64,000 nt of DNA, from the NCBI GenBank assembly GCA_963677925.2, contig CAXXYH010000004.1, positions 928,001 to 992,000 of the forward strand, written 5' to 3'. A program made the position numbers and the translations under genes. This DNA is from Spirochaetia bacterium (GTDB lineage Bacteria; Spirochaetota; Spirochaetia; UBA9216). The notes under the pieces are model-generated. The model searched no databases, was not told where the DNA came from, and worked only from the letters and a program-made list of their open reading frames with translations. Each line of letters opens with the position of its first letter. Position 1 is the stretch's first letter. Positions 4,521-33,532 of the stretch are shown one piece after another.

Positions 4521-5285
4521 GTGAATTTCAAATGGAGTAAAAGCCTGACAGATCCGGCTGAAATTGAAAACTGTGCAGGGGAGGGCTTTGACCAGATAGA
4601 GCTTTCTGCAGTTACGCTTGAGCAGTTGAAAGTTTCAGAAGTTTCTGAGCTCAAAGACAAAATAGCAGCAGCCGGACTTATGAATGATGTCTGTACCGCT
4701 ATTCTTCCTGATGAGGTCAGGGTGACTGAACAGGGATTTAATATTTATGCCTGGACGGAATATCTCAAAAAACTGTTTGAGAAAACTTCGGCAGCAGGCT
4801 GCAGGTATGCACTGTGGAATAATCCCCGGGCCAGAATCCTTCCGATGGAGGGTGAAATCGGCACCTTTAAAGAGCAGGCTCTGCAGTTTCTTTTTGTCCT
4901 TTCCGAGACAGGTGAAGAATTCGGGACTGAAATACTTATCGAACCGCATCCGGAAGAATGGACTAATTATATAAATACATTTGATGAAGCCCGAGAGGTG
5001 ATTACAAGAGTCGGACGCAGCAATATTTCAGTTTCACTGGGTTTTGCCGGCATTGATTCAATCTGGCCTGAAGGCTCGAGGAGCAGTTCTGAGGGGATAG
5101 GATACTTTCATTTTGAAAATCCCGATGTAACCCGCAGAATGCGTACTGCGCCTGAAAACGGTGATGGTATTGATTATAGAGCCATCCTTTCAGATCTCGG
5201 CAGTGTTGGCTACAGCGGGATAATAAACCTGCCTTCAGATGCAGATTCAGATACTCTGGCCTATCTCAAGGGCCTTGTTTCCTGA
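4521..5285 (+). CDS. Sugar phosphate isomerase/epimerase-family TIM-barrel protein (degenerate metal site)
   Basis: GFDQIEL, ILIEP...NYINT..EA, YFHF, R.AP..G..IDY..I...L...GYSG motifs of the AP-endonuclease-2/ketose 3-epimerase fold; GTG start with GGAGG RBS. Confidence 0.75.
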   Translation: MNFKWSKSLTDPAEIENCAGEGFDQIELSAVTLEQLKVSEVSELKDKIAAAGLMNDVCTAILPDEVRVTEQGFNIYAWTEYLKKLFEKTSAAGCRYALWNNPRARILPMEGEIGTFKEQALQFLFVLSETGEEFGTEILIEPHPEEWTNYINTFDEAREVITRVGRSNISVSLGFAGIDSIWPEGSRSSSEGIGYFHFENPDVTRRMRTAPENGDGIDYRAILSDLGSVGYSGIINLPSDADSDTLAYLKGLVS

Positions 5286-5531: not shown

Positions 5532-6176
5532 ATGGAAGGAACAAAAAACAAGAAGGTCCAGGTTTATGAAGCCCTTAAGAGAAGAATCATTGATGTAGAG
5601 CTTCAGCCGGGTCTGCCGATCAATGAGGCGGTTTTTGCTGAAGATTTAGGCGTTAGCAAGACACCGATAAGGGAAGCGCTGAGACAGCTTGAGCGTGACG
5701 GATTTGTTGAGAATGTACCGGGGCGGGGTTCCACCATTACTTACATCACTTCAAATGAAATTCAGGATGTATTTCAGATACGTGAAATTATAGAGGTTGG
5801 TGTTGCCAGGAAGGCTGCTGCAAGAAAGGGCAATACTGAACTGGAAAAAATCAGGGAAGACGGTCTGAAAATTCTTGAAGCCGGTGAACTGATGGAGGAA
5901 AAGGTTCTGGAATGGGGCAAATGGGAAAATATCCACTATGCCATTATCCGATCCATAGAAAATGATTCGCTTGAAAAGATCTACAGCGGTCTGATGGACC
6001 GGATGACCAGAATCAAAAATCATTACGGCCAGCGTTTTACCAAGCGCAGATTCAATGATATTCTCACAGAGCACCTGGCACTTCTTGATGCTATTTTCTC
6101 CGGTGATGAGGAAGCGGCAGGCAGGAGGATGCAGGAGCATCTTTCAAATGCAAGTTCCTACGTGCTTGGATTGTAG
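5532..6176 (+). CDS. GntR family (FadR/FCD) transcriptional regulator
   Basis: N-terminal HTH LQPG..INE..FAEDLGVSKTPIREAL; FCD C-terminus with H...EH..LLDAI..GD...A...M.EH. Confidence 0.92.
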   Translation: MEGTKNKKVQVYEALKRRIIDVELQPGLPINEAVFAEDLGVSKTPIREALRQLERDGFVENVPGRGSTITYITSNEIQDVFQIREIIEVGVARKAAARKGNTELEKIREDGLKILEAGELMEEKVLEWGKWENIHYAIIRSIENDSLEKIYSGLMDRMTRIKNHYGQRFTKRRFNDILTEHLALLDAIFSGDEEAAGRRMQEHLSNASSYVLGL

Positions 6177-9863: not shown

Positions 9864-9873
9864 GAGGCGGCAG

Positions 9874-13477: not shown

Positions 13478-13485
13478 CTCTAATA

Positions 13486-13509: not shown

Positions 13510-13549
13510 ATAATCATAATTATTTTTAACCAGTTCCCGGAGTGAATCA

Positions 13550-14362: not shown

Positions 14363-14374
14363 AAGGAGTAGAAA

Positions 14375-15178: not shown

Positions 15179-15189
15179 GGATTTGCATA

Positions 15190-18096
15190 ATGTTCAAAGA
15201 ATCAAAATACTACAATGGAAAGAATGGCTGCAAAATTGCAGTGGATCTGTACAGACCCGAAGATTCTGATACACAGATGCCTGTGGTTCTTAATGTCGCC
15301 TATGCTCCCAGAAAAGAACGTTTTGAACGATATAATGATTTTGTAAAATTACTTATTGATAAGGGCTATGCCGCAGCCTTCTCGGATCCACGCGGGGCCG
15401 GGGCTTCATACGGGACCCATGAGGGTTTTTACGGGCTGATAGATGCTGAGGACTATGAGCTGGTAATAAATGAAATTGCAGCCGAGCCCTGGTGCAGCGG
15501 ATCAGTGGGGATGTTCGGAGGCTCAAACAGCGGCTTCATTCAGCTTCTGACTGCCAGCCGTAAACCTGAAGCTCTCAAGGCTATAATTCCCTGTGATGCA
15601 TCAGTTGATATGTATTACCAGAATAATGTGAACGGCGCCTGTGATATTCCGCCTGGTAATGCCAGGGGCAGCAGTTCTTTGGCGGCCTCGTTCGCGGATG
15701 ACCTTCTTGTTGATGAAGAATCAGCAAAAGAGCTGTTAAAGCAGCATTCGGACAATCTGCCCTTTCTCGGTCAGTACCGGCGGAATGTGTACCGGGATAC
15801 TGTTAATGAAAATATAGGATACGCCCCCTACGCTGAGATTTCTCCCTGGAACAGGATGGATGATCTGAAGTATTCGGGAATCAGTACTTTTTATAATGCA
15901 GCCTGGTACGATCCGGGTGTAACCTGGTCAGTTATCGCTCAGAAGGATACCGGAGGAAGACAGGTTATCGGTCCCTGGAAGCATACGGAGATATTCAGTC
16001 AGAAGAATACAGAATCCGGTACATACTTTGACTGGAAGCAGAGTTATCTTGATTTCTTTGACAGTACTCTTAAAAATACAGAAAGCCATGCCTCCACCCA
16101 GCCTCCTGTCAGGTATTTAACTGTGAATGAGGATCCCGGTTTTGAGTGGAAGTTTGCTGCTAACTGGCCTGTTGACGGGCAGCGGTGGACCGAGTTCTTT
16201 TTTGATTCCAATCTCTCAATGAGTGATGCTCCTCCTTCGGAAACCGCTTCTATAGGCTACTGTCCTGATGACTCGGTTGAAATGATGGGATTCGGCAGGA
16301 TGAACCGGAATCTGGGTGCTGAGTTCGGTTCACAAAGCACAAAATGTATGGGCTTTATAGGCCCTGAATTAAGTACAGATTTAGAAATAACAGGAATCCC
16401 GGTTGTGGATATACAGGTGACTTCGAATTCCAGAGACGGTCTGTTTATTGCAGTACTTGAAGATGTCCGCAAGGACGGAAGCTCAGTGTATATAACCGAC
16501 GGAGCAATACGTGCTTCACATGGAAAGATACACCAAAACCGGAGCTGGGATGCTCTGGGAATTCCATACCACCGGGGCTGTGAAGAAGATGCTGTTGAAC
16601 TGAGTGCTGATAAACCCGTGAATCTCAAGTTCAACCTTGAGGCAATCTCCTACCGGATTCGGCGGGGAAGCAGGCTCAGGCTAAGTGTCTTCTGCGGGTC
16701 GGCAAATACCTACCATCAGCCTGAGGGCATGCCGGAAGATGTTATGATAAAGCTGTATACTGGGGGAGCTGCCGGTTCCAGGCTGATTCTTCCTTATACT
16801 GCAGAGGGAAATTATACATTCAGCGGTAATATGAGTTCGGATTCTCCTGAACTCATACCCTCCGGTGATACTGAACTTCTGGTTTTTGAAAAGGAAATAT
16901 ATCTGAAAACTGCTGCCTGCTGGAAGTGTTTCAGGTGCAGTCAGGTATATCCGGAAGGTGATGTGAAGATATATGAAACAGAACATTTCAGATTGAAGAA
17001 GTATACGGAATCAGGCCTTGTTAAAATAAAAATAGATGAGCCATGGCTGAAGTTCGAATCTGCTTCGGAAAAAGTGCTTCAGGCTCCCGGGTTTAAAAAT
17101 GTTTCACAGGAGATCCCGGACTATTCGGGCTGCAGAAAAAGTTCTGAAATTGATGATGAAAAATACATATATATAAAAAATCTTAATTTTGCGACTGTCC
17201 CTGTCAGGAGGGGCAAGCGCGGCTATCCAAACCTGCAGCCGGTGGAAAAGATGGATCTGTTTATCGATCTGATAAAGCCTGAAAATCCTGAAATCGCGAA
17301 AACTGACGCGGTTTATCCATGTATTGTGTGGATTCACGGATACGGCGGTTCAAACCATCTTTTCCATAATACATGCGGGCGCTTCCTTGAAGAGGGCTAT
17401 GCTGTGGCCTCAATCGACTACCGCATATATCCGCCCAACCTGTGGCCTGCGCCTGCTGTAGATGCCAAGGGTGCTATCAGATACCTCAAGGCAAACAGCG
17501 GAAGCTTGGGTCTGGACCCTGAGCGTTTCGGTATTATCGGCGTTTCCGCCGGCGGACATCTTTCTGCATATCTTGCTGCAACAAACGGCAGTCCGGCAAC
17601 TGAGGGAAATATCGGCGGAAATACAGGTACGGACAGTTCAGTAAAGGCCGCTGCAATATATTATCCCTGGTCGGATATGTTCAGCTTCGGAGATGATATT
17701 GCAGAACTTTATCCCGATAAACCGGAGAAGGTTGATGATTCAGACGGTCCCATAGCTCCTCCTGCCTGTCTGATAGGATTTGACGGTGAAGGCCTGGGAC
17801 TGGAAGTTCTTAAAAAGCATATGGCTGATGATGATGAATATTTTCAGAAGTTTATACGCATCGGAAAGGATGCCAGTCCTCTGTATCAGGTTACCTGCAA
17901 AAGTGCTCCAAGCGTTTTTGTTCATGGTATTACAGAGAACAATATACAGATTCCTATGAACCAGAGCGTCCGTATGTTCAGGGCACTGACTAAAAAGGGA
18001 GTTAAATCACTTATGTTCTGCAACAACAATGGAAATTACGGTGATGATCCCGAGGTTAAGGAGGCTGTAATCCAGTTCATGAAGAATAGAATATAA
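15190..18096 (+). CDS. CocE/NonD hydrolase fused to a C-terminal alpha/beta hydrolase (BD-FAE/lipase-like)
   Basis: N-terminal half: DLYRP, DPRGAGASYG, PWCSG.VGMFGGSN, IGPWKH, PepX_C-like region. C-terminal ~280 aa: VWIHG, SIDYR, DAKGAIRYLK, GVSAGGHL, VHG. Confidence 0.85.
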   Translation: MFKESKYYNGKNGCKIAVDLYRPEDSDTQMPVVLNVAYAPRKERFERYNDFVKLLIDKGYAAAFSDPRGAGASYGTHEGFYGLIDAEDYELVINEIAAEPWCSGSVGMFGGSNSGFIQLLTASRKPEALKAIIPCDASVDMYYQNNVNGACDIPPGNARGSSSLAASFADDLLVDEESAKELLKQHSDNLPFLGQYRRNVYRDTVNENIGYAPYAEISPWNRMDDLKYSGISTFYNAAWYDPGVTWSVIAQKDTGGRQVIGPWKHTEIFSQKNTESGTYFDWKQSYLDFFDSTLKNTESHASTQPPVRYLTVNEDPGFEWKFAANWPVDGQRWTEFFFDSNLSMSDAPPSETASIGYCPDDSVEMMGFGRMNRNLGAEFGSQSTKCMGFIGPELSTDLEITGIPVVDIQVTSNSRDGLFIAVLEDVRKDGSSVYITDGAIRASHGKIHQNRSWDALGIPYHRGCEEDAVELSADKPVNLKFNLEAISYRIRRGSRLRLSVFCGSANTYHQPEGMPEDVMIKLYTGGAAGSRLILPYTAEGNYTFSGNMSSDSPELIPSGDTELLVFEKEIYLKTAACWKCFRCSQVYPEGDVKIYETEHFRLKKYTESGLVKIKIDEPWLKFESASEKVLQAPGFKNVSQEIPDYSGCRKSSEIDDEKYIYIKNLNFATVPVRRGKRGYPNLQPVEKMDLFIDLIKPENPEIAKTDAVYPCIVWIHGYGGSNHLFHNTCGRFLEEGYAVASIDYRIYPPNLWPAPAVDAKGAIRYLKANSGSLGLDPERFGIIGVSAGGHLSAYLAATNGSPATEGNIGGNTGTDSSVKAAAIYYPWSDMFSFGDDIAELYPDKPEKVDDSDGPIAPPACLIGFDGEGLGLEVLKKHMADDDEYFQKFIRIGKDASPLYQVTCKSAPSVFVHGITENNIQIPMNQSVRMFRALTKKGVKSLMFCNNNGNYGDDPEVKEAVIQFMKNRI

Positions 18097-18135: not shown

Positions 18136-18180
18136 TTGACAATTGGAATATCTAAGTTATAATGAGATTATAATCTGATT
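18136..18180 (+). promoter_or_regulatory. Sigma70 promoter of the core catabolic operon with palindromic operator
   Basis: TTGACA (18136-18141)-16 nt-TATAAT (18158-18163); near-perfect 20-bp palindrome AATGAGATTATAATCTGATT (18161-18180) over the expected +1. Confidence 0.75.
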
Positions 18181-18317: not shown

Positions 18318-18989
18318 ATGGCACATGTTTATACGAACATCGAGAGACCTGATAAAGAACTGATTGAAAAATACAAAGAGCAGGCTTCGGCAACTGTATA
18401 TGAAGCTTCAGGCAGAAAGGGGTCTATTGATCCTGCAATTAAACCGATAGCAAAGGGAATGAAGATCTGCGGTCCCGCAATCACTGTTGAATGCAAAGCC
18501 AACGATAATCTGATGCTTCACAAGGCCATCCAGGTGGCAAAACCCGGTGATGTAATAATTTCAACTACTCAGGCTTTTTATAATGCCGGATACTTCGGCG
18601 GGCTGATGGCTGGTTCTGCTGTAGCCAGAGGAATTGCAGGTCTTGTTATCGACGGGGGAATCAGAGACAGCGAAGAAATCATAGAAATGGGGTTTCCGAT
18701 TTTTTCAAGACAGATTTGTATACGCGGAACAGTCAAGGCTCAGCTCGGTTCTGTAAATAAACCGATTATATTCGGCGGGGAAATTGTAAATCCGGGCGAC
18801 CTGGTTCTTGGGGATGATGACGGACTCGTAATCGTTCCAAGAGAAAGAATGGAAGAGGTTCTTGAAGCTTCTCAGAAGAGAGTTCAGAAAGAGATTGAAA
18901 AGGCTGAAATACTCGGAACCGGAACTCCCGGTGTAATTGTAAACAAGCTTGACGCAGTCTTTGAACGCCTCGGCCTTATTGAGGAATAA
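18318..18989 (+). CDS. RraA family 4-hydroxy-4-methyl-2-oxoglutarate / 4-carboxy-4-hydroxy-2-oxoadipate aldolase (LigK/GalC-like)
   Basis: ATVYEA.GR.G, ICGPAITV, DNLMLH.AI, GYFGGLM, DGGIRD (catalytic Arg/Asp), PGDLVLGDDDG. Confidence 0.87.
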   Translation: MAHVYTNIERPDKELIEKYKEQASATVYEASGRKGSIDPAIKPIAKGMKICGPAITVECKANDNLMLHKAIQVAKPGDVIISTTQAFYNAGYFGGLMAGSAVARGIAGLVIDGGIRDSEEIIEMGFPIFSRQICIRGTVKAQLGSVNKPIIFGGEIVNPGDLVLGDDDGLVIVPRERMEEVLEASQKRVQKEIEKAEILGTGTPGVIVNKLDAVFERLGLIEE

Positions 18990-18990
18990 G

Positions 18991-20040
18991 ATGAAGGTAA
19001 AAAAAGAAGATCTGGCTAAGACCATTTCCCTGCTGCTTGCCGCTTACGGAGCCGGCGAGAATGAGCAGGAAACAGTTTCCAGAATAATGATAGAGGCAGA
19101 TTCAAAGGGTATTGCCACACACGGCCTGTATTTCCTTCCGATGCTTCTTCAGCGGATCGAATCAGGACTTGTGCAGGTTCCTACAAATATTACAGAGATA
19201 ACAAACGATGCTGCAATCGCTCATCTAGACGGCGGAAACGGAATCGGACAGACTGCTGCTGAAGCGGCTATGAATCTGGCCATCGAAAAAGCCGGCAAGT
19301 TCGGAATCGGAATGTGCATGCTCAGAAATACCAATCATGTCGGGCTTCTGGGTCATTACAGCCTGATGGCTGCAAACAGGGGAATGCTTGGTATATGCAT
19401 GTGCAACAGTGCCCCTGCAATGGCTCCCTGGGGCGGTGCAGAGGCTATGTTCGGCACCAATCCCTTTTCGATTGCAGCACCTGCAGCAGATAACTATCCT
19501 ATAGCTCTTGATATGTCCACAAGCCTTGTCGCCCGCGGAAAGATCCGTCGAGCACTCAGAATGAATGAGCCTATTCCTGAAGGCTGGGCCTTTGATGCCG
19601 ACGGAAAGAGCACAACCGACCCGGAAGCTGCTATGGCGGGTACACTGATGCCGGTAGGAGGTCCGAAGGGCTACGGCATGGCACTGTTTATTGATATGCT
19701 CTGCGGCCTGGTTGCCGGTTCAAGCTTCGGTAAGGATGTAAAGACCTTCCACAAGCCGCTCGGGCCTACAGGTGTCGGGTTTTCAGCAATTGCTGTTGAT
19801 ATCTCAAGGTTTATTGATAATGATAAATTTGAGGTGATGATAAAAGACTATATAGATGGAATCAAATCCTCTAAAAAAGCCGGCGGTGTTGATAAAATCT
19901 ACATGCCCGGTGAAATAGAAGCAGATAAGGAACGTAATTCACTTGAGAACGGCATTCAGGTCGATGACGGTGTAATTGAGTCCGTAAATAAACTGCTGAA
20001 AGAAAAAAGTATAAACTTTCAGTTAGGAGACGGGGTTTAA
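18991..20040 (+). CDS. Ldh_2 family NAD(P)-dependent 2-hydroxyacid dehydrogenase (ComC/AllD/YiaK-like)
   Basis: AD.KGIATHG, DGGNGIG, NHVG.LG.Y, FGTNP, LDMSTS, GGPKGYG, MPGE. Start moved to ATG 18991 just after the aldolase stop. Confidence 0.88.
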   Translation: MKVKKEDLAKTISLLLAAYGAGENEQETVSRIMIEADSKGIATHGLYFLPMLLQRIESGLVQVPTNITEITNDAAIAHLDGGNGIGQTAAEAAMNLAIEKAGKFGIGMCMLRNTNHVGLLGHYSLMAANRGMLGICMCNSAPAMAPWGGAEAMFGTNPFSIAAPAADNYPIALDMSTSLVARGKIRRALRMNEPIPEGWAFDADGKSTTDPEAAMAGTLMPVGGPKGYGMALFIDMLCGLVAGSSFGKDVKTFHKPLGPTGVGFSAIAVDISRFIDNDKFEVMIKDYIDGIKSSKKAGGVDKIYMPGEIEADKERNSLENGIQVDDGVIESVNKLLKEKSINFQLGDGV

Positions 20041-20044
20041 TTCA

Positions 20045-21775
20045 ATGAACAAAATTCTAAGGGTAGATACAAGAACCGGTAATATCCGTTTTGTGAAACC
20101 GACAGAAGAAGAAATGCATGAAGGCGGCAGGTCGTTTATAGCAAACCACCTGATGAGAGAGGTTGATCCGGGATGTGATCCGCTCGGCCGTAAAAATCAT
20201 CTGATTATAGCAACCGGACTTCTCGGCGATACCAATCTTACAACTGCCGGAAGGCTTTCCATCGGCGGAAAGAGTCCTCTGACAGGCGGTGTCAAAGAGA
20301 GCAATGTCGGCGGCCTGGTCGGCAGAAGAATGGGCCGGATGGGTATTAAGGCTGTTATTCTTGAAGATGTACCTGAAAGCAGCAAGTGCTATGTTCTTGT
20401 TGTTAAAAATGATTCAGCTGTTCTGGTTGAAAAACCGGAACTTAAATGGATGGAAGCCAGTCCGACAATTAAGGTTCTTAAAGAAGAATACGGCGAGAAG
20501 GTCGGCGTTCTCTGTATCGGCCCTGCCGGTGAATATAAACTTGGGGCCGCAGTTGTTGCCACCACCGATCATACCGGTCTGCAGCTTAGAACTGCCGGAA
20601 GAGGCGGTCTTGGAGCTGTAATGGGCGCAAAGGGTGTGAAGGCTGTTGTTTTTGACGATGCAGGCGCAAAGCCTGATACTCTTGCTGATCCGGAAGCTTT
20701 CAAGGCTGCAGTACGTGAAGTTGCCGCAATTATAAAGGCAGATCCCAAAACTGACAACAGACATGAATTCGGTACTCCTGCAGTACTCGGAACATGTAAT
20801 GCAATCGGCATACTCCCGACCAGAAACTTCAGTTCCGGCAGTTTTGAACTGGCTGATGAAATTAACGGGGACAAGGTAGCCGAACTTATAGTCAGCCGCG
20901 GCGGCGAAGGCAAACGCGGACTTCCCTGCGTAATGGGCTGTATGATTCAATGTTCAAATATTTTTCCCGACCCGGAGGGAAAGGCTCATGTTGCTTCACT
21001 TCAGTATGAAAACATCGCCCTTCTGGGTTCAAACTGCGGAATCGGCGACATTGATGAAATTGCCATCCTTAACGATCTTGCAAACGAGGTAGGTATTGAT
21101 GCCATAGACGGCGGTGCGGCTGTCGGCATTGCCATGGAAGCCGGACTGCTTGAGTTCGGCGATTCCGAAGGGGCCAAGGATCTTCTTCGTCAGGTCGGTC
21201 AGGGAACACCATTCGGACGTATCATCGGTTCCGGAGCAGTAGCAACCGGAAAGGTTCTGGGAATAACAAGAATCCCTGCTACCAAGGGCCAGGCAATGCC
21301 GGCCTATGACCCGAGATCCCTGAAGGGCATCGGCGTAACCTACGCTATGTCGCCAATGGGCGCGGATCACACTGCCGGAAATACCCTTGAAACAGTGAAA
21401 TATCTGGATCCGAGAGGTACTGAAGGCCAGGTTGCAATATCATACAGACTTCAGGTGAGGGGTGCCCTTTTAGACAGTTTCGGGGTATGTCTTTTTCTAA
21501 GACCTGCCTTTGTCAAAGATCCTGAACTTGCAGCAAGACTTCTCAATGCCCGTTACGGCTGGACACTTACTTACAGGGATGTTCAGAAGATGTTTATTGA
21601 CTGCCTTAATGTTGAGCGTGAGTTTAATGAGAAGGCCGGTATTGATTCGAACAAGTGCGATATTCCCGAGTTTATGAGAGAAGAACCACTCCCGCCTTTC
21701 AACACTGTATTTGATGTGAGCAAGGCTGAGATGGATGCTATATGGGATGTGAAAATACAGGAGGACATTTTCTAA
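20045..21775 (+). CDS. aor: Aldehyde:ferredoxin oxidoreductase (W/Mo-bis-pterin AOR family)
   Basis: KSPLTGGVKESNVGG, CIGPAGE, GRGGLGAVMG.KGVKAVV, C-x3-C-x3-C plus distal Cys, GID motif, PAYDPR, MGADHT. Confidence 0.9.
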   Translation: MNKILRVDTRTGNIRFVKPTEEEMHEGGRSFIANHLMREVDPGCDPLGRKNHLIIATGLLGDTNLTTAGRLSIGGKSPLTGGVKESNVGGLVGRRMGRMGIKAVILEDVPESSKCYVLVVKNDSAVLVEKPELKWMEASPTIKVLKEEYGEKVGVLCIGPAGEYKLGAAVVATTDHTGLQLRTAGRGGLGAVMGAKGVKAVVFDDAGAKPDTLADPEAFKAAVREVAAIIKADPKTDNRHEFGTPAVLGTCNAIGILPTRNFSSGSFELADEINGDKVAELIVSRGGEGKRGLPCVMGCMIQCSNIFPDPEGKAHVASLQYENIALLGSNCGIGDIDEIAILNDLANEVGIDAIDGGAAVGIAMEAGLLEFGDSEGAKDLLRQVGQGTPFGRIIGSGAVATGKVLGITRIPATKGQAMPAYDPRSLKGIGVTYAMSPMGADHTAGNTLETVKYLDPRGTEGQVAISYRLQVRGALLDSFGVCLFLRPAFVKDPELAARLLNARYGWTLTYRDVQKMFIDCLNVEREFNEKAGIDSNKCDIPEFMREEPLPPFNTVFDVSKAEMDAIWDVKIQEDIF

Positions 21776-21776
21776 A

Positions 21777-22535
21777 ATGGCGGATTGTAAATATGATTTT
21801 GAAGGAAGAATCTGTGTTGTTACAGGTGCTTCAAGGGGTATCGGCGGCAGCATAGCCAGAATGATGCTCGAAGCCGGTGCAAGCCTTGCTCTTCTCGATA
21901 TGAATACCGAGGGAGCAGAAGCCCTTGCAGCAGAGTTCGACCCGGAAGGGAAGCGGACAATCTGCTGTAAAGTTAATGTCACAAACGAAGCAGATGTTAA
22001 GGCTGCTGTGGAAAAAGTGACCGCTAAGTTCGGAGGAATTGATATTCTTGTGAATGTTGCGGGTATTCTTAAGCACAAGCCTATCAACGAACTGAGCCTT
22101 GAGGATTTTACCTCGGTTGTAGATGTAAATCTTACCGGAACCTTTCTGATGTGCCGTGAAGTCACTCCGGTAATGAAAAAGAAGGGCCGCGGCAAGATTG
22201 TAAACATGGCCTCGCTCGGCGGAGAAACATCACGGAAAGTTGGCTGTAACTATGCCGGTTCAAAAGCAGGTGTTATGGGGCTTACAAAGTGTCTGGCCGG
22301 AGAGCTGGGTCCTGACGGAATATATGTGAATGCAATCAATCCCGGACCTATTATGACGGAGCTTACAAAGCAGGTGCCGCCTGAGGTTTTTGAAATATGG
22401 AATGAAGGCAGAAAGATTATTAAGGACGGAACGCCGGAAGATGTAGCAATGTCGGTTATGTTTCTGGCGTCGGAACAGTCCGACTGGATTACGGGTGTAG
22501 CGCTGGATGTAAACGGCGGAATATATATAGCTTAA
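21777..22535 (+). CDS. Short-chain dehydrogenase/reductase (probably NAD-preferring)
   Basis: TGASRGIG, acidic residue after beta2 (LLDMN), NVAG, YAGSK catalytic motif. Confidence 0.9.
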   Translation: MADCKYDFEGRICVVTGASRGIGGSIARMMLEAGASLALLDMNTEGAEALAAEFDPEGKRTICCKVNVTNEADVKAAVEKVTAKFGGIDILVNVAGILKHKPINELSLEDFTSVVDVNLTGTFLMCREVTPVMKKKGRGKIVNMASLGGETSRKVGCNYAGSKAGVMGLTKCLAGELGPDGIYVNAINPGPIMTELTKQVPPEVFEIWNEGRKIIKDGTPEDVAMSVMFLASEQSDWITGVALDVNGGIYIA

Positions 22536-22553
22536 AGATTTTTTGGAGGAAAT

Positions 22554-22919
22554 ATGGCTAAAACTATAGCAGTTAACATTAAAGATGTAACTCCGGTAAA
22601 AAGAGAACCGGCAAGAACATCTTGGACACTGGTTTCAGAAAAAACAGTAGGCGCTCAGAACCTTGCAGTTGGTGTTAATGAAACACCTGCCGGAAGTCAG
22701 GTTCCTGAGCATGAACATAACGTTGAAGAAGAAGTAATGTTCTTCGTAGCAGGCAGAGGCGTTTTCGTAACCGAAGATCAGGAAATACCTCTGGAGCCGG
22801 GTGTATGTGTTTACAATCCGCCGGGAGGAAAACACAAGATCCTCAACACAGGTGAAGAAACATTAAGATTCGTATGGATCTACGCACCTCAGCTTCCAAG
22901 CCACAGAATAGACGGATAA
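22554..22919 (+). CDS. Cupin domain protein
   Basis: Cupin motif 1 PEHEH..EEE.MFF..G.G and motif 2 PG...YNPPG.KH.I.NTG. Confidence 0.88.
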   Translation: MAKTIAVNIKDVTPVKREPARTSWTLVSEKTVGAQNLAVGVNETPAGSQVPEHEHNVEEEVMFFVAGRGVFVTEDQEIPLEPGVCVYNPPGGKHKILNTGEETLRFVWIYAPQLPSHRIDG

Positions 22920-22929
22920 GGAGAAAATA

Positions 22930-23898
22930 ATGGGTAATTGGGACCTTCCGCGCAAGGGCGGAAAAATGGAAAGTACTGATAAAATTTATTATCAGACTAT
23001 GACAAAAAGAGAACTTGAAGAAAGACTCAAGGTTAACGATGTTATCCTTATTCCTTTCGGTTCAACTGAAAACCACGGTGATTCACAGCCGATGGGCGAA
23101 GACGTATTCATCGTTACAAGAATGTGTGAAATGATTGCTGAAAAAACCGGATGTACAGTTGCAGAACCAATGTGGTACGCTTCTCATCCGTTCTCACACC
23201 TCGGTCAGAAATTTACAGTGCCTATCTCAGACGATGTAAACTCTGCACTTGTACGCCAGATAATTTCAGGTTACTGGAATGCAGGTTTCAGAAAAATGAT
23301 CCTCATGAGCAGCCACGGCCAGGAATACATCATTCCTTCAGCTATGCAGGAATGGGCAAAGAAATATCAGCTTCCGGCAATGATCTTTTTCATGGATGTA
23401 TGGAAAATTTCCGGTCAGGCAATGATGGACAAAGAACACGGCGGTCCGTTTGAGACTCCTTTCAGACACGGTGATGAAGCTGAAAACTCAGTCTGTCTTG
23501 CTCTGTTTGAAGAATTCGTACAGATGGAACACGCTGTTGATACAGAATGCTGGGGTTTCCTGCCTCCCGGTCATATCGACAAGGGCGGAGACATTTACGG
23601 CATGCCCATGGCAGGTCAGAGCGCTATCGGCGGCGGCGGAGTGGAGTTTGCCATCTATCCTGAAGGAGTTCTTGGAAAGCCTTCACTTGCAAAGGCTGAA
23701 AAAGCATTCGGCGCCATCGAAGCATACTGTGACTACGTGGTTAAGCTTCACAACGATATACTTGATAAATTTCCTGCAGGTAAACTTCCTGATGCTGAAT
23801 ATATGTCACAGAGAAGCAAGGAAGAAATCGAAGCTCTTCTCAAGGGACCGGATCAGCCCGGTGGAAAGCACATCTGGACTATAGCCTGGCCATCCTGA
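22930..23898 (+). CDS. iolN: Creatininase-family C-C hydrolase, 3-dehydro-scyllo-inosose hydrolase (IolN)-like
   Basis: YYQTMT..E..ERLK..D.I.IPFGSTENHG, GED, AEP.WY.SHP, GYWNAGFRK, HGQE, GGPFETPF.HGDE.E, GHIDK.G, YPEGV.GK, FPAGKLP: matches the Thermotoga IolN pattern as I recall it; the substrate may differ. Confidence 0.78.
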   Translation: MGNWDLPRKGGKMESTDKIYYQTMTKRELEERLKVNDVILIPFGSTENHGDSQPMGEDVFIVTRMCEMIAEKTGCTVAEPMWYASHPFSHLGQKFTVPISDDVNSALVRQIISGYWNAGFRKMILMSSHGQEYIIPSAMQEWAKKYQLPAMIFFMDVWKISGQAMMDKEHGGPFETPFRHGDEAENSVCLALFEEFVQMEHAVDTECWGFLPPGHIDKGGDIYGMPMAGQSAIGGGGVEFAIYPEGVLGKPSLAKAEKAFGAIEAYCDYVVKLHNDILDKFPAGKLPDAEYMSQRSKEEIEALLKGPDQPGGKHIWTIAWPS

Positions 23899-23923
23899 TA
23901 AGAAATCTGATAGGAGAGTGTAG

Positions 23924-24955
23924 ATGAAAGCGATAGTTAAAACTTCAGCTGAGCCTGGAGTATTTGAAGTAAAAGATGTACCTAAGCCTGAGGTAACCGA
24001 AAACCATGTACTGGTTCAGGTTAAGGCTACAGGTCTGTGCTACAGCGACTTTTCAATTCTTAATGCAACTTACACCGGAAGAAAGCCTGTGCCAATTCCT
24101 GTAATTATGGGCCATGAGGGTTCCGGTGTTATTGCTGAAATAGGCCGCGGCGTAAAGGGGCTTGAAGTAGGTCAGAGAGTAGCATTTGAAGCATTAAGCG
24201 GATGCGGTGTCTGTATTAACTGCCGGAAGGGCAACAAGAACATGTGTGAAGACTGGGATCACATAGGTATTACCTATGATGGTACTTTTGCCGAGTATGT
24301 TCTTCTTCCTGCACAGCTGATACACCCGCTTGCAGATAACATTTCTTTTGTTGATGCTGCCATCATGGAGCCTTTGAGTCTTGTAGTCCGCTCACTCGAG
24401 CATGTGCAGCCTCAGATTGGTGAAACCGCAGTTATTATCGGACCGGGAACAGTAGGACTTCTTCACCTTCAGGCACTCAAGTCTGCCGGTGTCGCAAAAA
24501 TTATTATCATCGGTCTTGATCCTGATGCAAAGAGATTTGAACTTGCCAAGGAACTTGGGGCTACTCATATTGTAAATGCAAGTAATGAGGATCCTGTAAA
24601 GGCAGTTGAAAGGATTACCGGCGGACTCAGAGCGGATATTCTGATTGAGACTGCAAGTTCTCCGAAGGTCTGGGATTATATGCTGGATCTGGTTGCTGCA
24701 AAAGGTCGTGTTTCCTGTTTCGGTCTTTATACTGAATCGAATTTTCAGCCAATCAAGGCCATCAGAAGCGGTATTACTATCTACGGTGACGTTGCATTCC
24801 TTGAGAGACACTTCATTAAGGGCCTGAGCTGGCTTGAAGCCGGTAAGGTTTCAGGTGAGGCCCTTGTTACTAAGAGGTACTCACTCGATGAGGCCGAACA
24901 GGCAATCAAGGATTTCAAGGCAAAAGAAACTGTAAAATGTATGTTTGAACTTTAA
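23924..24955 (+). CDS. Zn-dependent medium-chain alcohol dehydrogenase (Tdh/sorbitol-DH-like)
   Basis: GLCYSD, GHEGSG, CGVCINCR.G..NMC, GPGTVG. Confidence 0.9.
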   Translation: MKAIVKTSAEPGVFEVKDVPKPEVTENHVLVQVKATGLCYSDFSILNATYTGRKPVPIPVIMGHEGSGVIAEIGRGVKGLEVGQRVAFEALSGCGVCINCRKGNKNMCEDWDHIGITYDGTFAEYVLLPAQLIHPLADNISFVDAAIMEPLSLVVRSLEHVQPQIGETAVIIGPGTVGLLHLQALKSAGVAKIIIIGLDPDAKRFELAKELGATHIVNASNEDPVKAVERITGGLRADILIETASSPKVWDYMLDLVAAKGRVSCFGLYTESNFQPIKAIRSGITIYGDVAFLERHFIKGLSWLEAGKVSGEALVTKRYSLDEAEQAIKDFKAKETVKCMFEL

Positions 24956-26095: not shown

Positions 26096-26155
26096 TATAT
26101 ACTTAAGATATTTTTTAATCGATATTTGTTTTTCGATAAGGGGAGGTTTTTCCAG

Positions 26156-26647
26156 GTGGCTGTTTTTCACAAAATAGAGAGGCATTTGGAGGAAGGAGCA
26201 ATGATTCTTCTTCTGATTGGCATCGGAGTAATAATGCTGCTCCAGGTAATACTGCGGTATGTTTTCATGGCTCCGCTCAGCTGGGCGGAAGAGGTGTGCC
26301 GCTATATGTTTGTCTGGACTGCGTTTTTAAGTATAGGTTACTGCTTCAGGCTGGATAAAATACTTGCTGTAGATGCACTATATTCAAAGTTTCCGGCATT
26401 GCCGCGCAGGGTTATTGATGTAGTGGCGGCAATTATGACATTCGGACTGTTTTCATTTTTCTTTTACCGCTCAATCATGATATTCATGGCAATAGCAAGG
26501 ACGGGGCAGGTCAGTTCTGCTCTCGAAATTCCCATGCAGTTTGTTTACCTTGCAGCTCCGGTGGGCTTCGGTCTTGGAGTTGTCCGTTATGTTCAGTCAA
26601 AAATTATTAAATTCAGAGCGTCAGCTAAAGAGGGGAGTTCGAAATGA
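26156..26647 (+). CDS. dctQ: TRAP transporter small permease
   Basis: QV.LRYVF..PLSWAEE..RY, four TM segments. Start moved to GTG 26156 behind GGGAGG. Confidence 0.88.
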   Translation: MAVFHKIERHLEEGAMILLLIGIGVIMLLQVILRYVFMAPLSWAEEVCRYMFVWTAFLSIGYCFRLDKILAVDALYSKFPALPRRVIDVVAAIMTFGLFSFFFYRSIMIFMAIARTGQVSSALEIPMQFVYLAAPVGFGLGVVRYVQSKIIKFRASAKEGSSK

Positions 26648-27951
26648 TAGTTGGTCTTGCGTTTATTGTATTTTTTGCACTTCTCTTTCTCGGTATTCCC
26701 ATTGTTACTTCAATGGGCCTTACAACCCTTTTCCCTCTGCTTATCGGTTCCAATGTTCCATATAAAGTCGATACTGTAATCCGCTGGGCAATACAGGGAG
26801 CGGACAGTATTCCGCTCATTGCCATTCCGATGTTCATCCTGGCCGGAGCTGTTATGGCCCGCGGTGATATCTCAAAGAAGCTTTTTGATGTTTTCGCCTA
26901 TTTAATCGGCCGCCGTACCGCAGGTCTTCCCATTGCTGCAATTGTTACCGCACTTTTTTACGGCGCAATTTCAGGAAGCGGAGTAGCTACTGCAGCTGCA
27001 GTAGGCGGAATGACTATTCCGCTGCTTGTAGACAAACTGGGTTATGACAGGAAGTTCATAGCGGCAATGGTGGCTACGGCAGGAGGGCTGGGTGTAATTA
27101 TCCCACCGAGTATTCCGTTTATCTTTTACGGAATGATGACACAGACTTCAGTCGGCGAAATATTTGTTGCCGGTATAATTCCCGGCATACTCATCGCCCT
27201 CTCTCTTATGGTTTATACATTTATCTACTGCAAGAAAAACGGTGAAGACCGGCTGAAGATTGATACGGCGGTTGATGAGCTTAAAGCCAAGGGTTTTTTC
27301 AGGGTGTTCAGGGAAAGTTTCTTTGCTCTGATGTCTCCGGTTATCATCCTGGGCGGTATTTACAGCGGAATTGTTACTCCGACAGAGGCTGCAACTATTT
27401 CAGTTGCATATTCCCTGATTGTTTCGCTGTTTATCTACAAAACTATAAAGTTTAATGAGATTATCCCGATTTTTGCCAAGGCTGTTTCACAGTATGCGCC
27501 GCTGGTAATGGTAATTGCCCTTGCAATGTCTTTCAGCCGCATGATGACTGTTTTAAAGACTGCAAGTATAGTAGGTGCTTTTGTCTCCAGTGTCCTTTCG
27601 ACTCCATTCCTTTTTATCATCGGAATAATAATTCTTCTGCTGCTCATGGGAATGGTTATGGATGTAGGTTTTGCAGTTGTAATTCTCGGTCCGGTGTTTG
27701 CTCCGGTAGGTGTAATGATGGGGGTAAGCCCTGTTCATCTTTGTATCATCATGGTTTCCTGTCTAGCTATAGGAATGGTAACGCCTCCATTCGGTATGAA
27801 CCTCTTTGTAATTTCACCGATGGTAAACGAGAACGCATTCTCTGTGGGCCGCAAGGCCATCCCCTTTGTGCTGAGTTTCGGTATTGCCCTTTTGCTTATA
27901 GCATTCATACCGGATATAAGTTTGTTTCTTGTTAATCTGATGAGAGGTTGA
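26644..27951 (+). CDS. dctM: TRAP transporter large permease
   Basis: AIPMFILAG, FYGAISGSG.ATAAA.G, IIPPSIP, TPTEAA, TPPFG.NLF. Confidence 0.92.
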   Translation: MIVGLAFIVFFALLFLGIPIVTSMGLTTLFPLLIGSNVPYKVDTVIRWAIQGADSIPLIAIPMFILAGAVMARGDISKKLFDVFAYLIGRRTAGLPIAAIVTALFYGAISGSGVATAAAVGGMTIPLLVDKLGYDRKFIAAMVATAGGLGVIIPPSIPFIFYGMMTQTSVGEIFVAGIIPGILIALSLMVYTFIYCKKNGEDRLKIDTAVDELKAKGFFRVFRESFFALMSPVIILGGIYSGIVTPTEAATISVAYSLIVSLFIYKTIKFNEIIPIFAKAVSQYAPLVMVIALAMSFSRMMTVLKTASIVGAFVSSVLSTPFLFIIGIIILLLLMGMVMDVGFAVVILGPVFAPVGVMMGVSPVHLCIIMVSCLAIGMVTPPFGMNLFVISPMVNENAFSVGRKAIPFVLSFGIALLLIAFIPDISLFLVNLMRG

Positions 27952-28012
27952 CCAATAATTTAGGCTAAATCGTGTTTTACACACGCAGTATATATTTTCG
28001 AAGGAGTGTTTA

Positions 28013-30675: not shown

Positions 30676-31179
30676 ATGGGTATTATCAAGTGGCTGGATA
30701 ATAACCTCGAGAAAATCTTTCTCGTGGCGATGCTCGTGTTTATGAGCATTCTGATTATGTTTCAGGTAATTATGAGGTATATATTTCATAACGCCCTGGG
30801 CTGGCCTGAAGAACTGGCCAGATACAGTTTTATTCTATTTTCGTTCATGACATTGGGTTTCTGTATTAAAAACAAGTCTAATTTCCGTATTGATCAGCTG
30901 GTTAAGAAGCTGCCGGAAGTTGTGCAGAGTGTACTGAACATCCTTGTCGACTTCGGTTTTCTGTTCTTTTACAGCTTCTGCTTTTACTACTCACTAATTG
31001 CAGTAGAGCAGGCAAGGGCAACAGGGAACATCACCACAGGACTTCAGATGCCGGTCTTTATTCTTTATATAATCGCCGGTGCCGGATTACTCATTGGGGC
31101 TCTTCGGGCTGTTCAGTCCATCGTTACAGGAATTGTCAGTTTTAAAAGCTCCTCGGACAGGGAGAATATGAATGCTTAG
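30676..31179 (+). CDS. dctQ: TRAP transporter small permease
   Basis: QVIMRYIF...LGWPEELARY; four TM segments. Confidence 0.88.
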   Translation: MGIIKWLDNNLEKIFLVAMLVFMSILIMFQVIMRYIFHNALGWPEELARYSFILFSFMTLGFCIKNKSNFRIDQLVKKLPEVVQSVLNILVDFGFLFFYSFCFYYSLIAVEQARATGNITTGLQMPVFILYIIAGAGLLIGALRAVQSIVTGIVSFKSSSDRENMNA

Positions 31180-32467
31180 TTTAATCTTCTCGGTTTTTGT
31201 TATTCTTCTTGTGACAGGATTTCCAATTGGACTAACAATTGGTTTAAGCTCGATAATTCCGGGGATCGTGAATCCCTCTTTTCCAGGCGGAGCTCTATAT
31301 CTGCTGAGGGCCATGGTAAGCGGAATAGACAGTACTCCGATCCTTGCTATCCCCTTTTTCATGCTTGCCGGCTCAATTATGGCAATGGGCGGCATTTCCA
31401 AAAAACTGTTCAACGTATTCGCCTACCTGGTCGGTAAAAGAACAGCCGGTATTCCTATTGCTGTAGTAATTACATGTGCGTTTTACGGTGCAATAAGCGG
31501 ATCAGGTCCTGCTACTACTGCGGCTGTAGGGGCAATGACCATCCCGATTCTGACGAACCTCGGCTATAAAAAGGAATTTTCCGCGGCCCTGGTTGCTTCC
31601 GCCGGAGGGATTGGTGTTATCATTCCGCCGAGTATCCCGTTTATAATGTTCGGTATGATGACCGGAACATCAGTAGGTGCGCTCTTTCTTGCAGGTTTTA
31701 TTCCGGGGATTCTGATTGCTGCCCTGCTTATTCTTTATGTATATTTCTACTGCAGAAGAAACGGCGAGGATAAGGAAAAGGTTGCTGCAAATTATGAGGA
31801 GCTGAAGGCTAAGGGTTTTCTGAACATCCTCAAAGAAAGCATCTGGGCAATTATCACGCCTGTTATAATTCTGGGCGGTATCTACAGCGGTATAGTAACA
31901 CCGACAGAGGCTGCTGTTGTTTCGGTATTCTATTCACTTATCGTATGTGTATTCATCTACAGGACAATCAATTTTCACAATATATTTGATATTCTGCTTT
32001 CTTCAATAAAGTCTATTGCACCTCTCTGTTTTCTTCTCATAACTGCAATGACTTTTGCAAGGGTAATGACACTGGCTCACGCACCCCAGGAACTTGCCAG
32101 CTTTCTTTCGAGCGCTTTTTCAAATCCGTATATATTTCTGATTGCCGTCAACATTGTTTTCCTGATTATCGGAATGTTTACAGATGTTGCAGGTGCAATC
32201 GCGATAACTGCTCCCATGATGATGCCTGTTATTGCTATGTTCGGTATTGACCCTGTGCATTTTGGTGTTGTGCTGGTTGTTAACCTTTCAATCGGACTTA
32301 TCTCACCGCCTATCGGTCTGAACCTGTTTGTAGGTGCATCAATGATTGAATCTCAGCCGTCGGCTGTTACCAGACGAATCATTCCATTCGTTCTGGTCTA
32401 CATCGTCGCTCTGATGGTCATCACCTATGTACCTCAGGTTTCACTTATGTTAAGCAAGGTTTTATAG
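31172..32467 (+). CDS. dctM: TRAP transporter large permease
   Basis: AIPFFMLAG, FYGAISGSG.AT, IIPPSIP, TPTEAA, SPPIGLNLF. Confidence 0.92.
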   Translation: MLSLIFSVFVILLVTGFPIGLTIGLSSIIPGIVNPSFPGGALYLLRAMVSGIDSTPILAIPFFMLAGSIMAMGGISKKLFNVFAYLVGKRTAGIPIAVVITCAFYGAISGSGPATTAAVGAMTIPILTNLGYKKEFSAALVASAGGIGVIIPPSIPFIMFGMMTGTSVGALFLAGFIPGILIAALLILYVYFYCRRNGEDKEKVAANYEELKAKGFLNILKESIWAIITPVIILGGIYSGIVTPTEAAVVSVFYSLIVCVFIYRTINFHNIFDILLSSIKSIAPLCFLLITAMTFARVMTLAHAPQELASFLSSAFSNPYIFLIAVNIVFLIIGMFTDVAGAIAITAPMMMPVIAMFGIDPVHFGVVLVVNLSIGLISPPIGLNLFVGASMIESQPSAVTRRIIPFVLVYIVALMVITYVPQVSLMLSKVL

Positions 32468-32500
32468 GAATAGAACCTTAAAAAATATTAGGAGTGTTTA

Positions 32501-33532
32501 ATGAAAAATGGAAAGATTTTAGGACTAATCTGTATCCTGACTGTTCTGCTCGCCGGAACAGTACTCGCCGGAGGTTCACAGGAAGCTGCTTCATCTGATG
32601 AACCCAAAGTAACTATTATCCTCGGTCACGGATCACCGGATAATTCTTTTGCGAATGAGGGTGCAAATCTCTTAAAGAAACTTGCTGCTGAACGCTCAGC
32701 AGGTAAAATTGTGATTGATAACTATCCGGCCTTCCAGCTTGGTAATATTATGGAACTCGACCAGAACGTAAAGGGCGGTTCAATTCAGATGGTTATGGGA
32801 ACAATAGGCGGAATGATGTCAAGAAAACTGTCTGCTCTGGACCTTCCCAGTACCTTTAATGATATGGATGCTGCACGAAAGGTTCTGTCGGAAGGCGAAT
32901 TCATCAAAATGGTTGATGATGTGCTTGCTGAATCCAACCTCAAGCTGATGAGCGGTGTTATTCCGGTTGGTTACAGAGAGGTTTCCAGTAATAAGGAGAT
33001 CAGAACAGCTGATGATCTTAAAGGTCTTAAGATCAGAACTATGGAACACCCGCTTCATATGGCATACTGGAAGGCTCTTGGAGCTAATCCTACTCCTATT
33101 GCTTTCAGCGAACTATATGTCGGACTTCAGCAGGGGCTTGTTGAAGCTCAGGAAAATCCGTTTGATACAATTCTCTCAAGCAAGATCTACGAACAGCAGA
33201 AATATATTGTACTGACACATCATGTAATGTTCTGCAGCGGTTATGTAATGAATCTGGATTTCTATAACAGCCTTCCTGCTGAATACCAGCAGATTCTGAA
33301 AGACGTATTTGTTGAAGTTGATAAATATGTTTATGAAAATTCAATCAGGGTTAATGCAGAATCGCTTGCAAAGCTTCAGGCTGAAGGTCTTGAAGTTATT
33401 GAGTTCAGCGATGCTGATTATGCAAAGATGGCCGAGGCTGCGAAACCTGTAATCGAAATGGTAAGAAAAGATTCAGGCGATCTGATGGTTGATACTCTTC
33501 TCAAGGAACTTGCAGAAGCATCTTCCAAATAA
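32501..33532 (+). CDS. dctP: TRAP transporter substrate-binding protein
   Basis: YPAFQLG, DLKGLKIRTME, LGANPTPI.FSELY.GLQQG.VEAQENP. Confidence 0.92.
   Translation: MKNGKILGLICILTVLLAGTVLAGGSQEAASSDEPKVTIILGHGSPDNSFANEGANLLKKLAAERSAGKIVIDNYPAFQLGNIMELDQNVKGGSIQMVMGTIGGMMSRKLSALDLPSTFNDMDAARKVLSEGEFIKMVDDVLAESNLKLMSGVIPVGYREVSSNKEIRTADDLKGLKIRTMEHPLHMAYWKALGANPTPIAFSELYVGLQQGLVEAQENPFDTILSSKIYEQQKYIVLTHHVMFCSGYVMNLDFYNSLPAEYQQILKDVFVEVDKYVYENSIRVNAESLAKLQAEGLEVIEFSDADYAKMAEAAKPVIEMVRKDSGDLMVDTLLKELAEASSK

Follow-up and report, generated by a model that had tools for sequence, protein, structure and literature searches.

How do anaerobes ferment hydroaromatic acids without passing through aromatic intermediates, and which genes do they use? 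Plants supply abundant carbon as quinate, shikimate, and their esters, chlorogenic acids among them, and what becomes of these compounds in anoxic sediments, the subsurface, and guts has hardly been linked to genes. Hydroaromatic compounds are fermented by specialists, among them Ilyobacter insuetus, which was described decades ago, without genes, and reportedly ferments them without aromatic intermediates. A seven-gene operon built around an IolN-family hydrolase raises this question anew in a Spirochaetia bacterium (GCA_963677925.2, here G000), whose 5.04-Mb genome consists of four contigs (designated C). We analyzed the operon within a window of 64,000 nucleotides (C4:928001–992000), for which a preliminary description had suggested an anaerobic, non-aromatic cleavage of the quinate ring. 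On the gene content and its conservation, we consider it moderately probable that the operon encodes an oxygen-independent, non-aromatizing route by which a hydroaromatic acid (quinate or shikimate, via dehydroquinate) is converted to 4-carboxy-4-hydroxy-2-oxoadipate (CHA) by hydrolytic ring opening.

Gene content of the operon

The operon consists of seven intact open reading frames (ORFs) on the + strand at positions 18318–24955, which are separated by gaps of 1–25 bp. All of them were found where the preliminary description had placed them, and the Pfam and NCBIfam assignments agree with the families named there. The genes encode, in this order, an RraA-fold class II aldolase, an Ldh_2-family 2-hydroxyacid dehydrogenase, a tungsten/molybdenum aldehyde:ferredoxin oxidoreductase (AOR), an SDR, a small cupin, the hydrolase, and a Zn-dependent dehydrogenase (Table 1).

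The aldolase exceeds the cutoff of the NCBIfam model NF006731 for CHA aldolase/oxaloacetate decarboxylase (242.4 vs. 179 bits) and falls below that of TIGR02798 ligK_PcmE (224.3 vs. 304.5 bits). Its alignment with the solved CHA aldolase PDB 3NOJ covers 217 residues (172.5 bits) and pairs R116-D117 with R123-D124, so that the Arg-Asp pair, which we take to be the metal/pyruvate site of RraA-fold aldolases, is kept. The Ldh_2 gene matches PF02615 with 383 bits, and its best solved relative is the L-sulfolactate dehydrogenase 2X06. This ORF was called at 18949–20040 from a TTG at 18949, and an ATG visible in the translation at 18991 is likely the true start. The AOR carries AFOR_N and AFOR_C domains (176.8 and 219 bits) and a cysteine cluster, read by eye; it scores 226 bits against the solved AOR 9MQX and 218 bits against 1AOR, and is far under the NCBIfam AOR equivalog cutoff (73.5 vs. 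868 bits). In the cupin, the HxH...E and H metal motifs were likewise read by eye, and searches of the PDB and the Atlas for its function returned generic cupins only. The hydrolase is well above the cutoff of the IolN model NF041098 (477.7 vs. 245 bits), and the Zn-dehydrogenase is under that of the IolM model NF041097 for scyllo-inosose 3-dehydrogenase (198.5 vs. 450 bits). The Pfam/NCBIfam scan detected neither kinase nor dehydratase genes within the cluster.

A predicted hydrolytic route to CHA

In the route that we infer, from its substrate through every intermediate to each assignment of an enzyme to a step, quinate would be oxidized to 3-dehydroquinate, and shikimate would be oxidized to dehydroshikimate and then hydrated on a dehydroquinase. 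C5 would then be oxidized by another dehydrogenase, for which the IolM-like Zn enzyme is the most likely candidate, to yield a 4-hydroxy-3,5-dione, which should be the only 1,3-dione obtainable from quinate. Retro-Claisen cleavage of this dione by the IolN-type metal hydrolase would leave the open-chain C7 ketol 3-carboxy-3,6-dihydroxy-5-oxohexanoate (HOOC-CH2-C(OH)(COOH)-CH2-CO-CH2OH), which the cupin would isomerize to a hydroxy-aldehyde, a role that is a guess. The AOR, or an aldehyde dehydrogenase in other genomes, would oxidize the aldehyde, and the Ldh_2 enzyme, whose solved relatives interconvert 2-hydroxy and 2-oxo acids, would oxidize the 2-hydroxy acid to CHA, which the RraA-type aldolase would split into pyruvate and oxaloacetate. 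Raising the terminal ketol to a 2-oxo acid would give exactly CHA, the name-giving substrate of the aldolase family, and C1 of quinate, with its hydroxyl and carboxyl groups between two methylenes, would correspond exactly to C4 of CHA. The mass and redox balance put forward earlier, with 8 [H] and 2 H2O, closes when checked by hand. A bolder variant, in which the two dehydroquinase copies would additionally convert the keto form of gallate to this dione by hydration, appears very improbable. No description of such a route was found in the literature searched, which included few subscription journals, and a prior description may exist; searches on hydroaromatic compounds led only to papers on metabolic engineering or to titles in reference lists.

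If true, this route would assign genes, which have been missing, to the fermentation of hydroaromatic acids without aromatic intermediates and would constitute a second, hydrolytic way to the lignin-pathway intermediate CHA that requires no oxygenase. Many "inositol hydrolase" annotations in anaerobes would then name the wrong substrate, and the cluster would provide marker genes for hydroaromatic fermentation in metagenomes. It also makes a long-open physiological observation directly testable with a defined set of seven to ten enzymes.

Conservation of the cluster in related genomes

We compared 96 related loci, 16 genome-derived and 80 metagenome-derived, which are not independent of each other. 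As the gene grouping is conserved in these 96 loci, it is more than chance. The 16 loci from the genome collection, with IolN at 72–100% identity, belong to Spirochaetota and Atribacterota; if the proposal is true, the pathway would be a widespread one that occurs in these two phyla. In 79 of 86 loci, the cupin gene immediately precedes IolN. Loci with at least 5 kb of upstream sequence (n = 51) contain genes for the cupin (n = 50), Ldh_2 (n = 49), aldolase (n = 46), SDR (n = 40), a GntR regulator located upstream of the aldolase (n = 36), and AOR (n = 35). Where at least 4 kb is available downstream (n = 50), a TRAP transporter (n = 44), an orthologue of the Zn-dehydrogenase with at least 45% identity (n = 37), and Gfo/Idh/MocA genes (n = 14) are found. 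Dereplication of 92 full-length IolN sequences by single linkage at 90% identity resulted in 20 groups, and the cupin (n = 18), TRAP (n = 16), AOR (n = 15), Ldh_2 (n = 14), and aldolase (n = 14) genes recur across these as well. In the other genomes with the cluster, the clustered aldolase is the sole aldolase above the cutoff in four of four cases.

The preliminary description had expected all seven families to stay together and each gene to catalyze one step. The core is indeed kept together, but the AOR and SDR genes are present in only 35 and 40 of the 51 loci, respectively, and the one-gene-one-step scheme is not supported in that form. In three loci (L005, L014, and L035), a 485-aa Aldedh gene is present instead of the AOR gene, and the occurrence of an aldehyde dehydrogenase in loci without AOR argues for an aldehyde intermediate. 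In some lineages, the side-chain oxidation must run differently; we can only speculate that, for example, the alcohol is oxidized to a 2-oxoaldehyde, followed by a cupin-catalyzed rearrangement.

The distribution of the cluster is patchy, with the IolN cutoff passed in 4 of 401 sampled Spirochaetota genomes and 40 of 86 sampled Atribacterota genomes. Matches of at least 420 bits occur in 14 of the 86 Atribacterota genomes, and these high-scoring homologues would be explained by the proposed route. IolN homologues that are at least 58% identical include the source names Thermovenabulum, Desulfotomaculales, and Desulfosporosinus, and a Thermovenabulum gondwanense protein shares 92% identity with the IolN of one locus (L105). 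In the same locus, a gene of the PEP-mutase/isocitrate-lyase superfamily adjoins the aldolase gene (L105:765–1658, minus strand) and may encode an enzyme that processes oxaloacetate or a related acid. Six loci (L007, L010, L011, L016, L033, and L045) contain genes for URO-D-like proteins of 388–416 aa between the TRAP and the Gfo or Zn-dehydrogenase genes. A further URO-D-like gene is found in G000 itself (C3:1652022–1653254), in a second locus at C3:1.65 Mb that contains Gfo, URO-D-like, and TRAP orthologues in a sugar ABC/ROK context.

Dehydroquinases, AroE-like genes, and transporters

Type II dehydroquinase (aroQ) genes are found in 20 of the 96 loci and in 7 of the 13 loci with at least 8 kb on both sides, and they neighbor the cluster in at least seven different positions and orientations. 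Among these arrangements, pairs occur upstream together with a TIM barrel gene, on either strand, or downstream after AroE-like, M24, or Aldedh genes, and single copies lie just before the aldolase gene or after the Zn-dehydrogenase gene. The latter arrangement was observed in five loci (L040, L043, L047, L051, and L101), and in two of these (L043 and L101) the aroQ gene lies within the operon, with the Zn-dehydrogenase gene on one side and the AOR gene on the other. AroE-like genes occur in 7 of the 96 loci. At the end of the L105 cluster, an AroE-like gene is accompanied by a type I dehydroquinase, and the aroQ function is thus supplied there by an unrelated fold. The association with aroQ and aroE that had been anticipated is supported by dehydroquinases of two unrelated types, often accompanied by AroE-like genes, that recur beside the cluster.

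Carboxylate importers of the TRAP type had also been noted near the operon, and the window does contain two such systems, in line with their presence in 44 of the 50 related loci. The Q-M-P TRAP systems embedded in the L105 and L112 clusters are 38–50% identical to the window system at 30676..33532. The cluster-linked binding proteins are nearest to solved hydroxy-acid binders, and the L010 type matches chiefly the sialic-acid-binding SiaP. The TRAP systems found with the cluster, compared with the sugar-type binding protein and ABC ATPases at the locus of a hydrolase paralogue (L118, see below), argue for a carboxylate as the probable substrate. Together with the FCD-type regulator and the linkage to dehydroquinase and AroE-like genes, the transporter class appears to point to a cyclic acid on the dehydroquinate skeleton.

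A composition of AroE-like, AroQ, and TIM-barrel proteins could also be read as a classical aromatizing module, in which a TIM-barrel dehydroshikimate dehydratase forms protocatechuate, placed beside an operon for an unrelated acid. The composition presumably resembles that of the aerobic qsu and qui clusters, and the TIM barrel, whose gene adjoins aroQ in nine loci, matches AsbF at 1.7e-5 in a profile search against the PDB. However, IolI (4.5e-8), sugar epimerases (3.5e-6 to 1e-5), and TM0416 (1.4e-5) match as well or better, and from these similarities the protein could be either an IolI/IolO-like isomerase or an AsbF-like dehydratase. The aroQ genes inside the operon and directly after the Zn-dehydrogenase gene also run counter to a separate module, as does the lack of any match to the intradiol dioxygenase family PF00775, which includes protocatechuate dioxygenase, in the whole G000 genome. 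We therefore regard the aromatizing alternative as improbable.

The preliminary description had stated that no dioxygenase is encoded here, and this was confirmed for the window, where the other upstream meta-cleavage enzymes (hydrolase and hydratase) are likewise absent. A single LigB-family gene is present in G000 and lies on another contig (C3). Furthermore, no heme-copper oxidase was found in the genome, which carries five AOR paralogues. The lack of PF00775 and of a heme-copper oxidase, together with these AOR paralogues, indicates an anaerobe without an oxygenase route to CHA.

Hydrolase paralogues and the inositol question

The hydrolases fall into phylogenetically separate branches. 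In a tree that did not include the T. maritima IolN sequence, 25 rows form an aldolase-linked clade with 100/100 support, apart from the L118 and the L117/L121 branches; two rows of this clade, L106 and L109, come from contigs that are too short to show the aldolase gene. Three homologue searches returned no Thermotoga protein among their best 120 matches.

In the L118 branch, a hydrolase 49% identical to that of the window is encoded with a Zn-dehydrogenase of 386 aa (IolM length), a TIM barrel, a sugar-type binding protein, and ABC ATPases, a composition that matches the Thermotoga inositol operon. The L117/L121 branch (50% identical) combines cupin, IolN, and Ldh_2 genes with a fumarase-like pair, malic enzyme, and a TctABC transporter. 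A third group, clade B, consists of 369-aa hydrolases with 34% identity to the window IolN, encoded with Gfo, TIM, and PfkB genes. One genome (G404) holds the aldolase type and the L118 type, and another (G401) combines the aldolase and L117 types with clade B. That a single genome holds paralogues in different contexts implies that their substrates differ. G000 holds only the aldolase-type IolN, and its neighbors are the cupin, Ldh_2, aldolase, AOR, and TRAP genes, not an IolG/IolM/IolO/kinase/sugar ABC context.

These contexts bear on the possibility that the operon encodes a variant of the Thermotoga-type inositol pathway, in which inositol would be converted via 3-dehydro-scyllo-inosose to 5-dehydro-L-gluconate by IolN, and this product would be isomerized, oxidized to an aldarate, and cleaved. 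The intermediates of the T. maritima pathway are listed in PMC5931981. The IolN score of the operon hydrolase, to which that of T. maritima is comparable, would fit such a variant, as would the IolM-like Zn-dehydrogenase, the IolI/IolO-like TIM barrel, and the Gfo/Idh/MocA genes in 14 of 50 loci. In contrast, the importer is of the TRAP and not the sugar ABC type in 44 of 50 loci, and the true inositol-context paralogue forms a separate branch and coexists with the aldolase type in the same genome (G404). The cluster lacks a kinase and a dehydratase, and a pyruvate-specific CHA aldolase would be unsuited to a 3-hydroxylated aldarate. Furthermore, G000 encodes two IolD proteins above the cutoff (964 and 933 vs. 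715 bits); therefore, an inositol route already exists elsewhere in this genome. Thus, we also rate the inositol variant as improbable. The IolD genes are located at C4:1052928–1054841 and C4:1628586–1630499, with Gfo/Idh/MocA, TIM-barrel, and KduI/IolB homologues nearby, and the classical inositol pathway appears to be present twice.

Alternatively, the cluster may catabolize another cyclic or polyhydroxy carboxylate via the cupin-IolN-Ldh_2 module, with the dehydroquinases acting on an analogue or being biosynthetic neighbors. This triad occurs in L117 and L121 without the aldolase, next to the fumarase-like pair, malic enzyme, and TctABC, and has evidently been put to use for other acids as well. 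G000 has no dehydroquinase besides the aroQ pair, and the exact substrate of the operon is a prediction from gene content. What speaks against another acid is that the dehydroquinase link recurs in at least seven arrangements, one of which involves a type I enzyme, and that AroE-like genes co-occur. To our knowledge, among natural cyclitol acids only the quinate skeleton gives a tertiary hydroxy-carboxy carbon between two methylenes for a CHA-type aldolase, and the presumed substrate of the aldolase would fit this skeleton. On balance, another acid seems unlikely to us, if less so than inositol or an aromatizing module.

The L117/L121 cluster is a paralogous Atribacterota cluster (L117 at G401:C55:20000–39999), in which a GntR gene is followed by genes for the alpha and beta subunits of a class I fumarase-like enzyme, malic enzyme, a 305-aa protein without Pfam match, cupin, IolN, Ldh_2, nitroreductase, TctC/TctA tricarboxylate transporter, and an AOR-like protein. 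This appears to be a further undescribed route, in which the ring of a different cyclic acid is cleaved.

Clade B (L113, G089:C48:392–4441; L114) scores above the IolN equivalog cutoff at approximately 300 bits, and its genes adjoin those for Gfo/Idh/MocA, a TIM barrel, and a PfkB kinase. The family is large and conserved, with 2434 proteins at E ≤ 1e-10, the best 120 of which are 80–100% identical to the query. The idea that clade B (L113) represents the Thermotoga type was dropped after a T. maritima control matched NF041098 at E ≤ 1e-135.

Weighing the hydroaromatic reading

Several observations weigh against a hydroaromatic route. The T. maritima control means that a characterized inositol enzyme scores about as well on NF041098 as the operon hydrolase, and the latter is 49–50% identical to other paralogues of the family, including that of the inositol-context locus L118. 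Atribacterota-type loci have neither an AOR nor an aldehyde dehydrogenase gene within reach, and since AOR and SDR are not universal, the side-chain chemistry cannot be identical everywhere. The aroQ pair comprises the only dehydroquinases found in a genome search of G000, in which type I enzymes are absent and both aroB (C4:2.10 Mb) and aroC (C3:0.88 Mb) are present; thus, at least one aroQ must also serve the biosynthesis of aromatic amino acids. The window contains no AroE/YdiB-type quinate dehydrogenase, and the two AroE-like genes of G000 are located elsewhere. Moreover, the TRAP binding proteins of the window share only 31–37% identity with the types found after IolN in the majority of loci. 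The literature searched did not reveal the postulated 3,5-didehydroquinate as a metabolite, the matches all concerning quinine, quinoline, or quinoxaline chemistry, and the compound might aromatize to gallate; the TIM barrel, if it were an AsbF-like dehydroshikimate dehydratase, could point to an aromatizing branch. Finally, the support is wholly comparative.

With these points considered, the central idea of the preliminary description is favored by the linkage of the core genes, the TRAP systems, the recurring dehydroquinase and AroE-like genes, the exchange of AOR for Aldedh, the distinct hydrolase clade, and the separate IolD loci, whereas its stepwise assignment is not supported in the form given.

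Comparison with known pathways

In aerobic quinate and shikimate catabolism (qui, qsu, and qa clusters), dehydroshikimate is dehydrated to protocatechuate, and oxygenases are needed. The operon and its relatives resemble these clusters in that catabolic genes with a local regulator are linked to genes for dehydroquinases and AroE-like dehydrogenases, but dehydroquinate would here be oxidized further and its ring hydrolyzed. In the Bacillus-type inositol pathway, a cyclitol dione is opened hydrolytically by IolD, a thiamine-diphosphate enzyme acting on a 1,2-dione, and the cupin-fold IolB performs an aldose-ketose isomerization. Hydrolytic dione opening followed by cupin-fold isomerization would be a parallel to the route proposed here, and KduI/IolB-family genes are present in the L105 and L015 clusters, but the small cupin of the operon belongs to Cupin_2 and not to KduI/IolB. 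The final enzyme of the protocatechuate 4,5-cleavage/gallate pathway (LigK/GalC/ProA) is of the same family as the operon aldolase, and its products, pyruvate and oxaloacetate, are those predicted here. In contrast to that pathway, CHA would arise here without a dioxygenase, hydratase, or lactonase, and the aldolase is under the TIGR02798 cutoff.

In the T. maritima inositol pathway (IolG, IolM, IolN, and IolO; TM0411–TM0416), two ring oxidations lead to a 2-hydroxy-1,3-dione that is opened by a creatininase-fold hydrolase. The operon region similarly encodes an IolN-family hydrolase, an IolM-like Zn-dehydrogenase, and an IolI/IolO-like TIM barrel. It differs in having a carboxylate transporter instead of a sugar ABC system, and the cupin, Ldh_2, AOR, and CHA-type aldolase replace the epimerase, kinase, and uronate route of Thermotoga. 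The hydrolase also belongs to a separate clade (49% identical to the inositol-context paralogue), and the Zn-dehydrogenase is under the IolM cutoff. Thus, the upper half of the proposed route works like the Thermotoga inositol route and its last step like the CHA branch of the protocatechuate/gallate pathway, and it belongs fully to neither. Hydrolytic opening of a six-membered 1,3-dione ring is also described for the anaerobic phloroglucinol pathway, with phloroglucinol reductase and dihydrophloroglucinol cyclohydrolase, in PMC10470551. In that pathway, the substrate is aromatic and is first reduced, and the products are acetoacetate and acetyl units instead of pyruvate and oxaloacetate. The enzymes differ as well, and the words IolN, creatininase, and inosose do not occur in PMC10470551.

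Genomic surroundings of the operon

Upstream of the operon, the window contains a tandem aroQ pair, the TIM barrel gene, and a GntR/FCD regulator gene (Table 1). Both aroQ genes are full-length (PF01220 profile positions 1–137 and 2–137 of 138) and are predicted to encode enzymes that interconvert dehydroshikimate and dehydroquinate, feeding shikimate into the route. They had been thought to flank the island, but both are on one side, approximately 14 kb upstream. The regulator at 5532..6176 likely controls the cluster, and the best explanation for the aroQ-aroQ-TIM-GntR block is that it belongs with the operon.

Table 1. Features of the operon and its surroundings in the window
Feature	Predicted role	Position	Strand	Match or motif
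Candidate sigma-70-type promoter		18136..18163	+	TTGACA-16-TATAAT, 12/12 consensus match; 221-bp gap before aldolase gene
RraA-fold class II aldolase	Predicted CHA -> pyruvate + oxaloacetate	18318..18989	+	
Ldh_2-family 2-hydroxyacid dehydrogenase	Predicted 4-carboxy-2,4-dihydroxyadipate -> CHA	18991..20040	+	
Tungsten/molybdenum AOR	Predicted aldehyde -> acid, accessory	20045..21775	+	
NAD-type SDR	Predicted oxidation of ring or side-chain alcohol	21777..22535	+	adh_short 201 bits
Small metal-binding cupin, 121 aa	Predicted ketol/aldehyde isomerase on ring-opened product	22554..22919	+	Cupin_2
IolN-family creatininase-fold hydrolase	Predicted C-C cleavage of dehydroquinate-derived 4-hydroxy-3,5-dione	22930..23898	+	
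Zn-dependent secondary-alcohol dehydrogenase, IolM analogue	Predicted C5 oxidation of dehydroquinate	23924..24955	+	ADH_N + ADH_zinc_N
Tandem type II dehydroquinase (aroQ) genes		3599–4048, 4073–4510	+	PF01220, 195.2 and 176.2 bits
Xylose-isomerase-like TIM barrel beside aroQ pair		4521..5285	+	PF01261
GntR/FCD regulator		5532..6176	+	GntR + FCD domains
Second TRAP system		26126–29059		
TRAP transporter DctQ, DctM, DctP	Candidate importer	30676..33532	+	Domain matches

The upstream side also harbors a PucR-type regulator, an Opp-type ABC system, and three esterase genes, and the downstream side an esterase, the two TRAP systems with a carboxylesterase between them, DUF3237, an M24 hydrolase, and another esterase. 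The island had been described as rich in esterases, and these are present, but they are generic and lineage-specific and are not conserved with the cluster elsewhere. None of the window esterases reaches a curated NCBIfam esterase or tannase cutoff. In a relative with 83–93% nucleotide identity (L002), most of the Opp/esterase block is missing and the aroQ-TIM-GntR genes lie approximately 3 kb from the aldolase gene. As only fragments of the PucR/Opp/esterase block (window positions 6261–18096) are retained in L002, this esterase/peptide-type transporter module is recent or unstable in the lineage.

The M24 (creatinase/prolidase-like) hydrolase gene at 34182–35333 recurs near the cluster in 11 of the 96 related loci. 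Farther downstream, a 4358-aa ORF (36645–49721), whose sole Pfam match is a C-terminal FlgD Ig-like domain, presumably encodes a giant surface protein. The minus strand of the last part of the window (53565–64000) contains a Pel-like exopolysaccharide locus, with genes for a PelG exporter, a glycosyltransferase of the DUF3492/GT4 type, a protein with a GAF domain, and a nucleotidyl transferase. In the same region, a TPR protein that exceeds 1100 aa extends past the end of the window.

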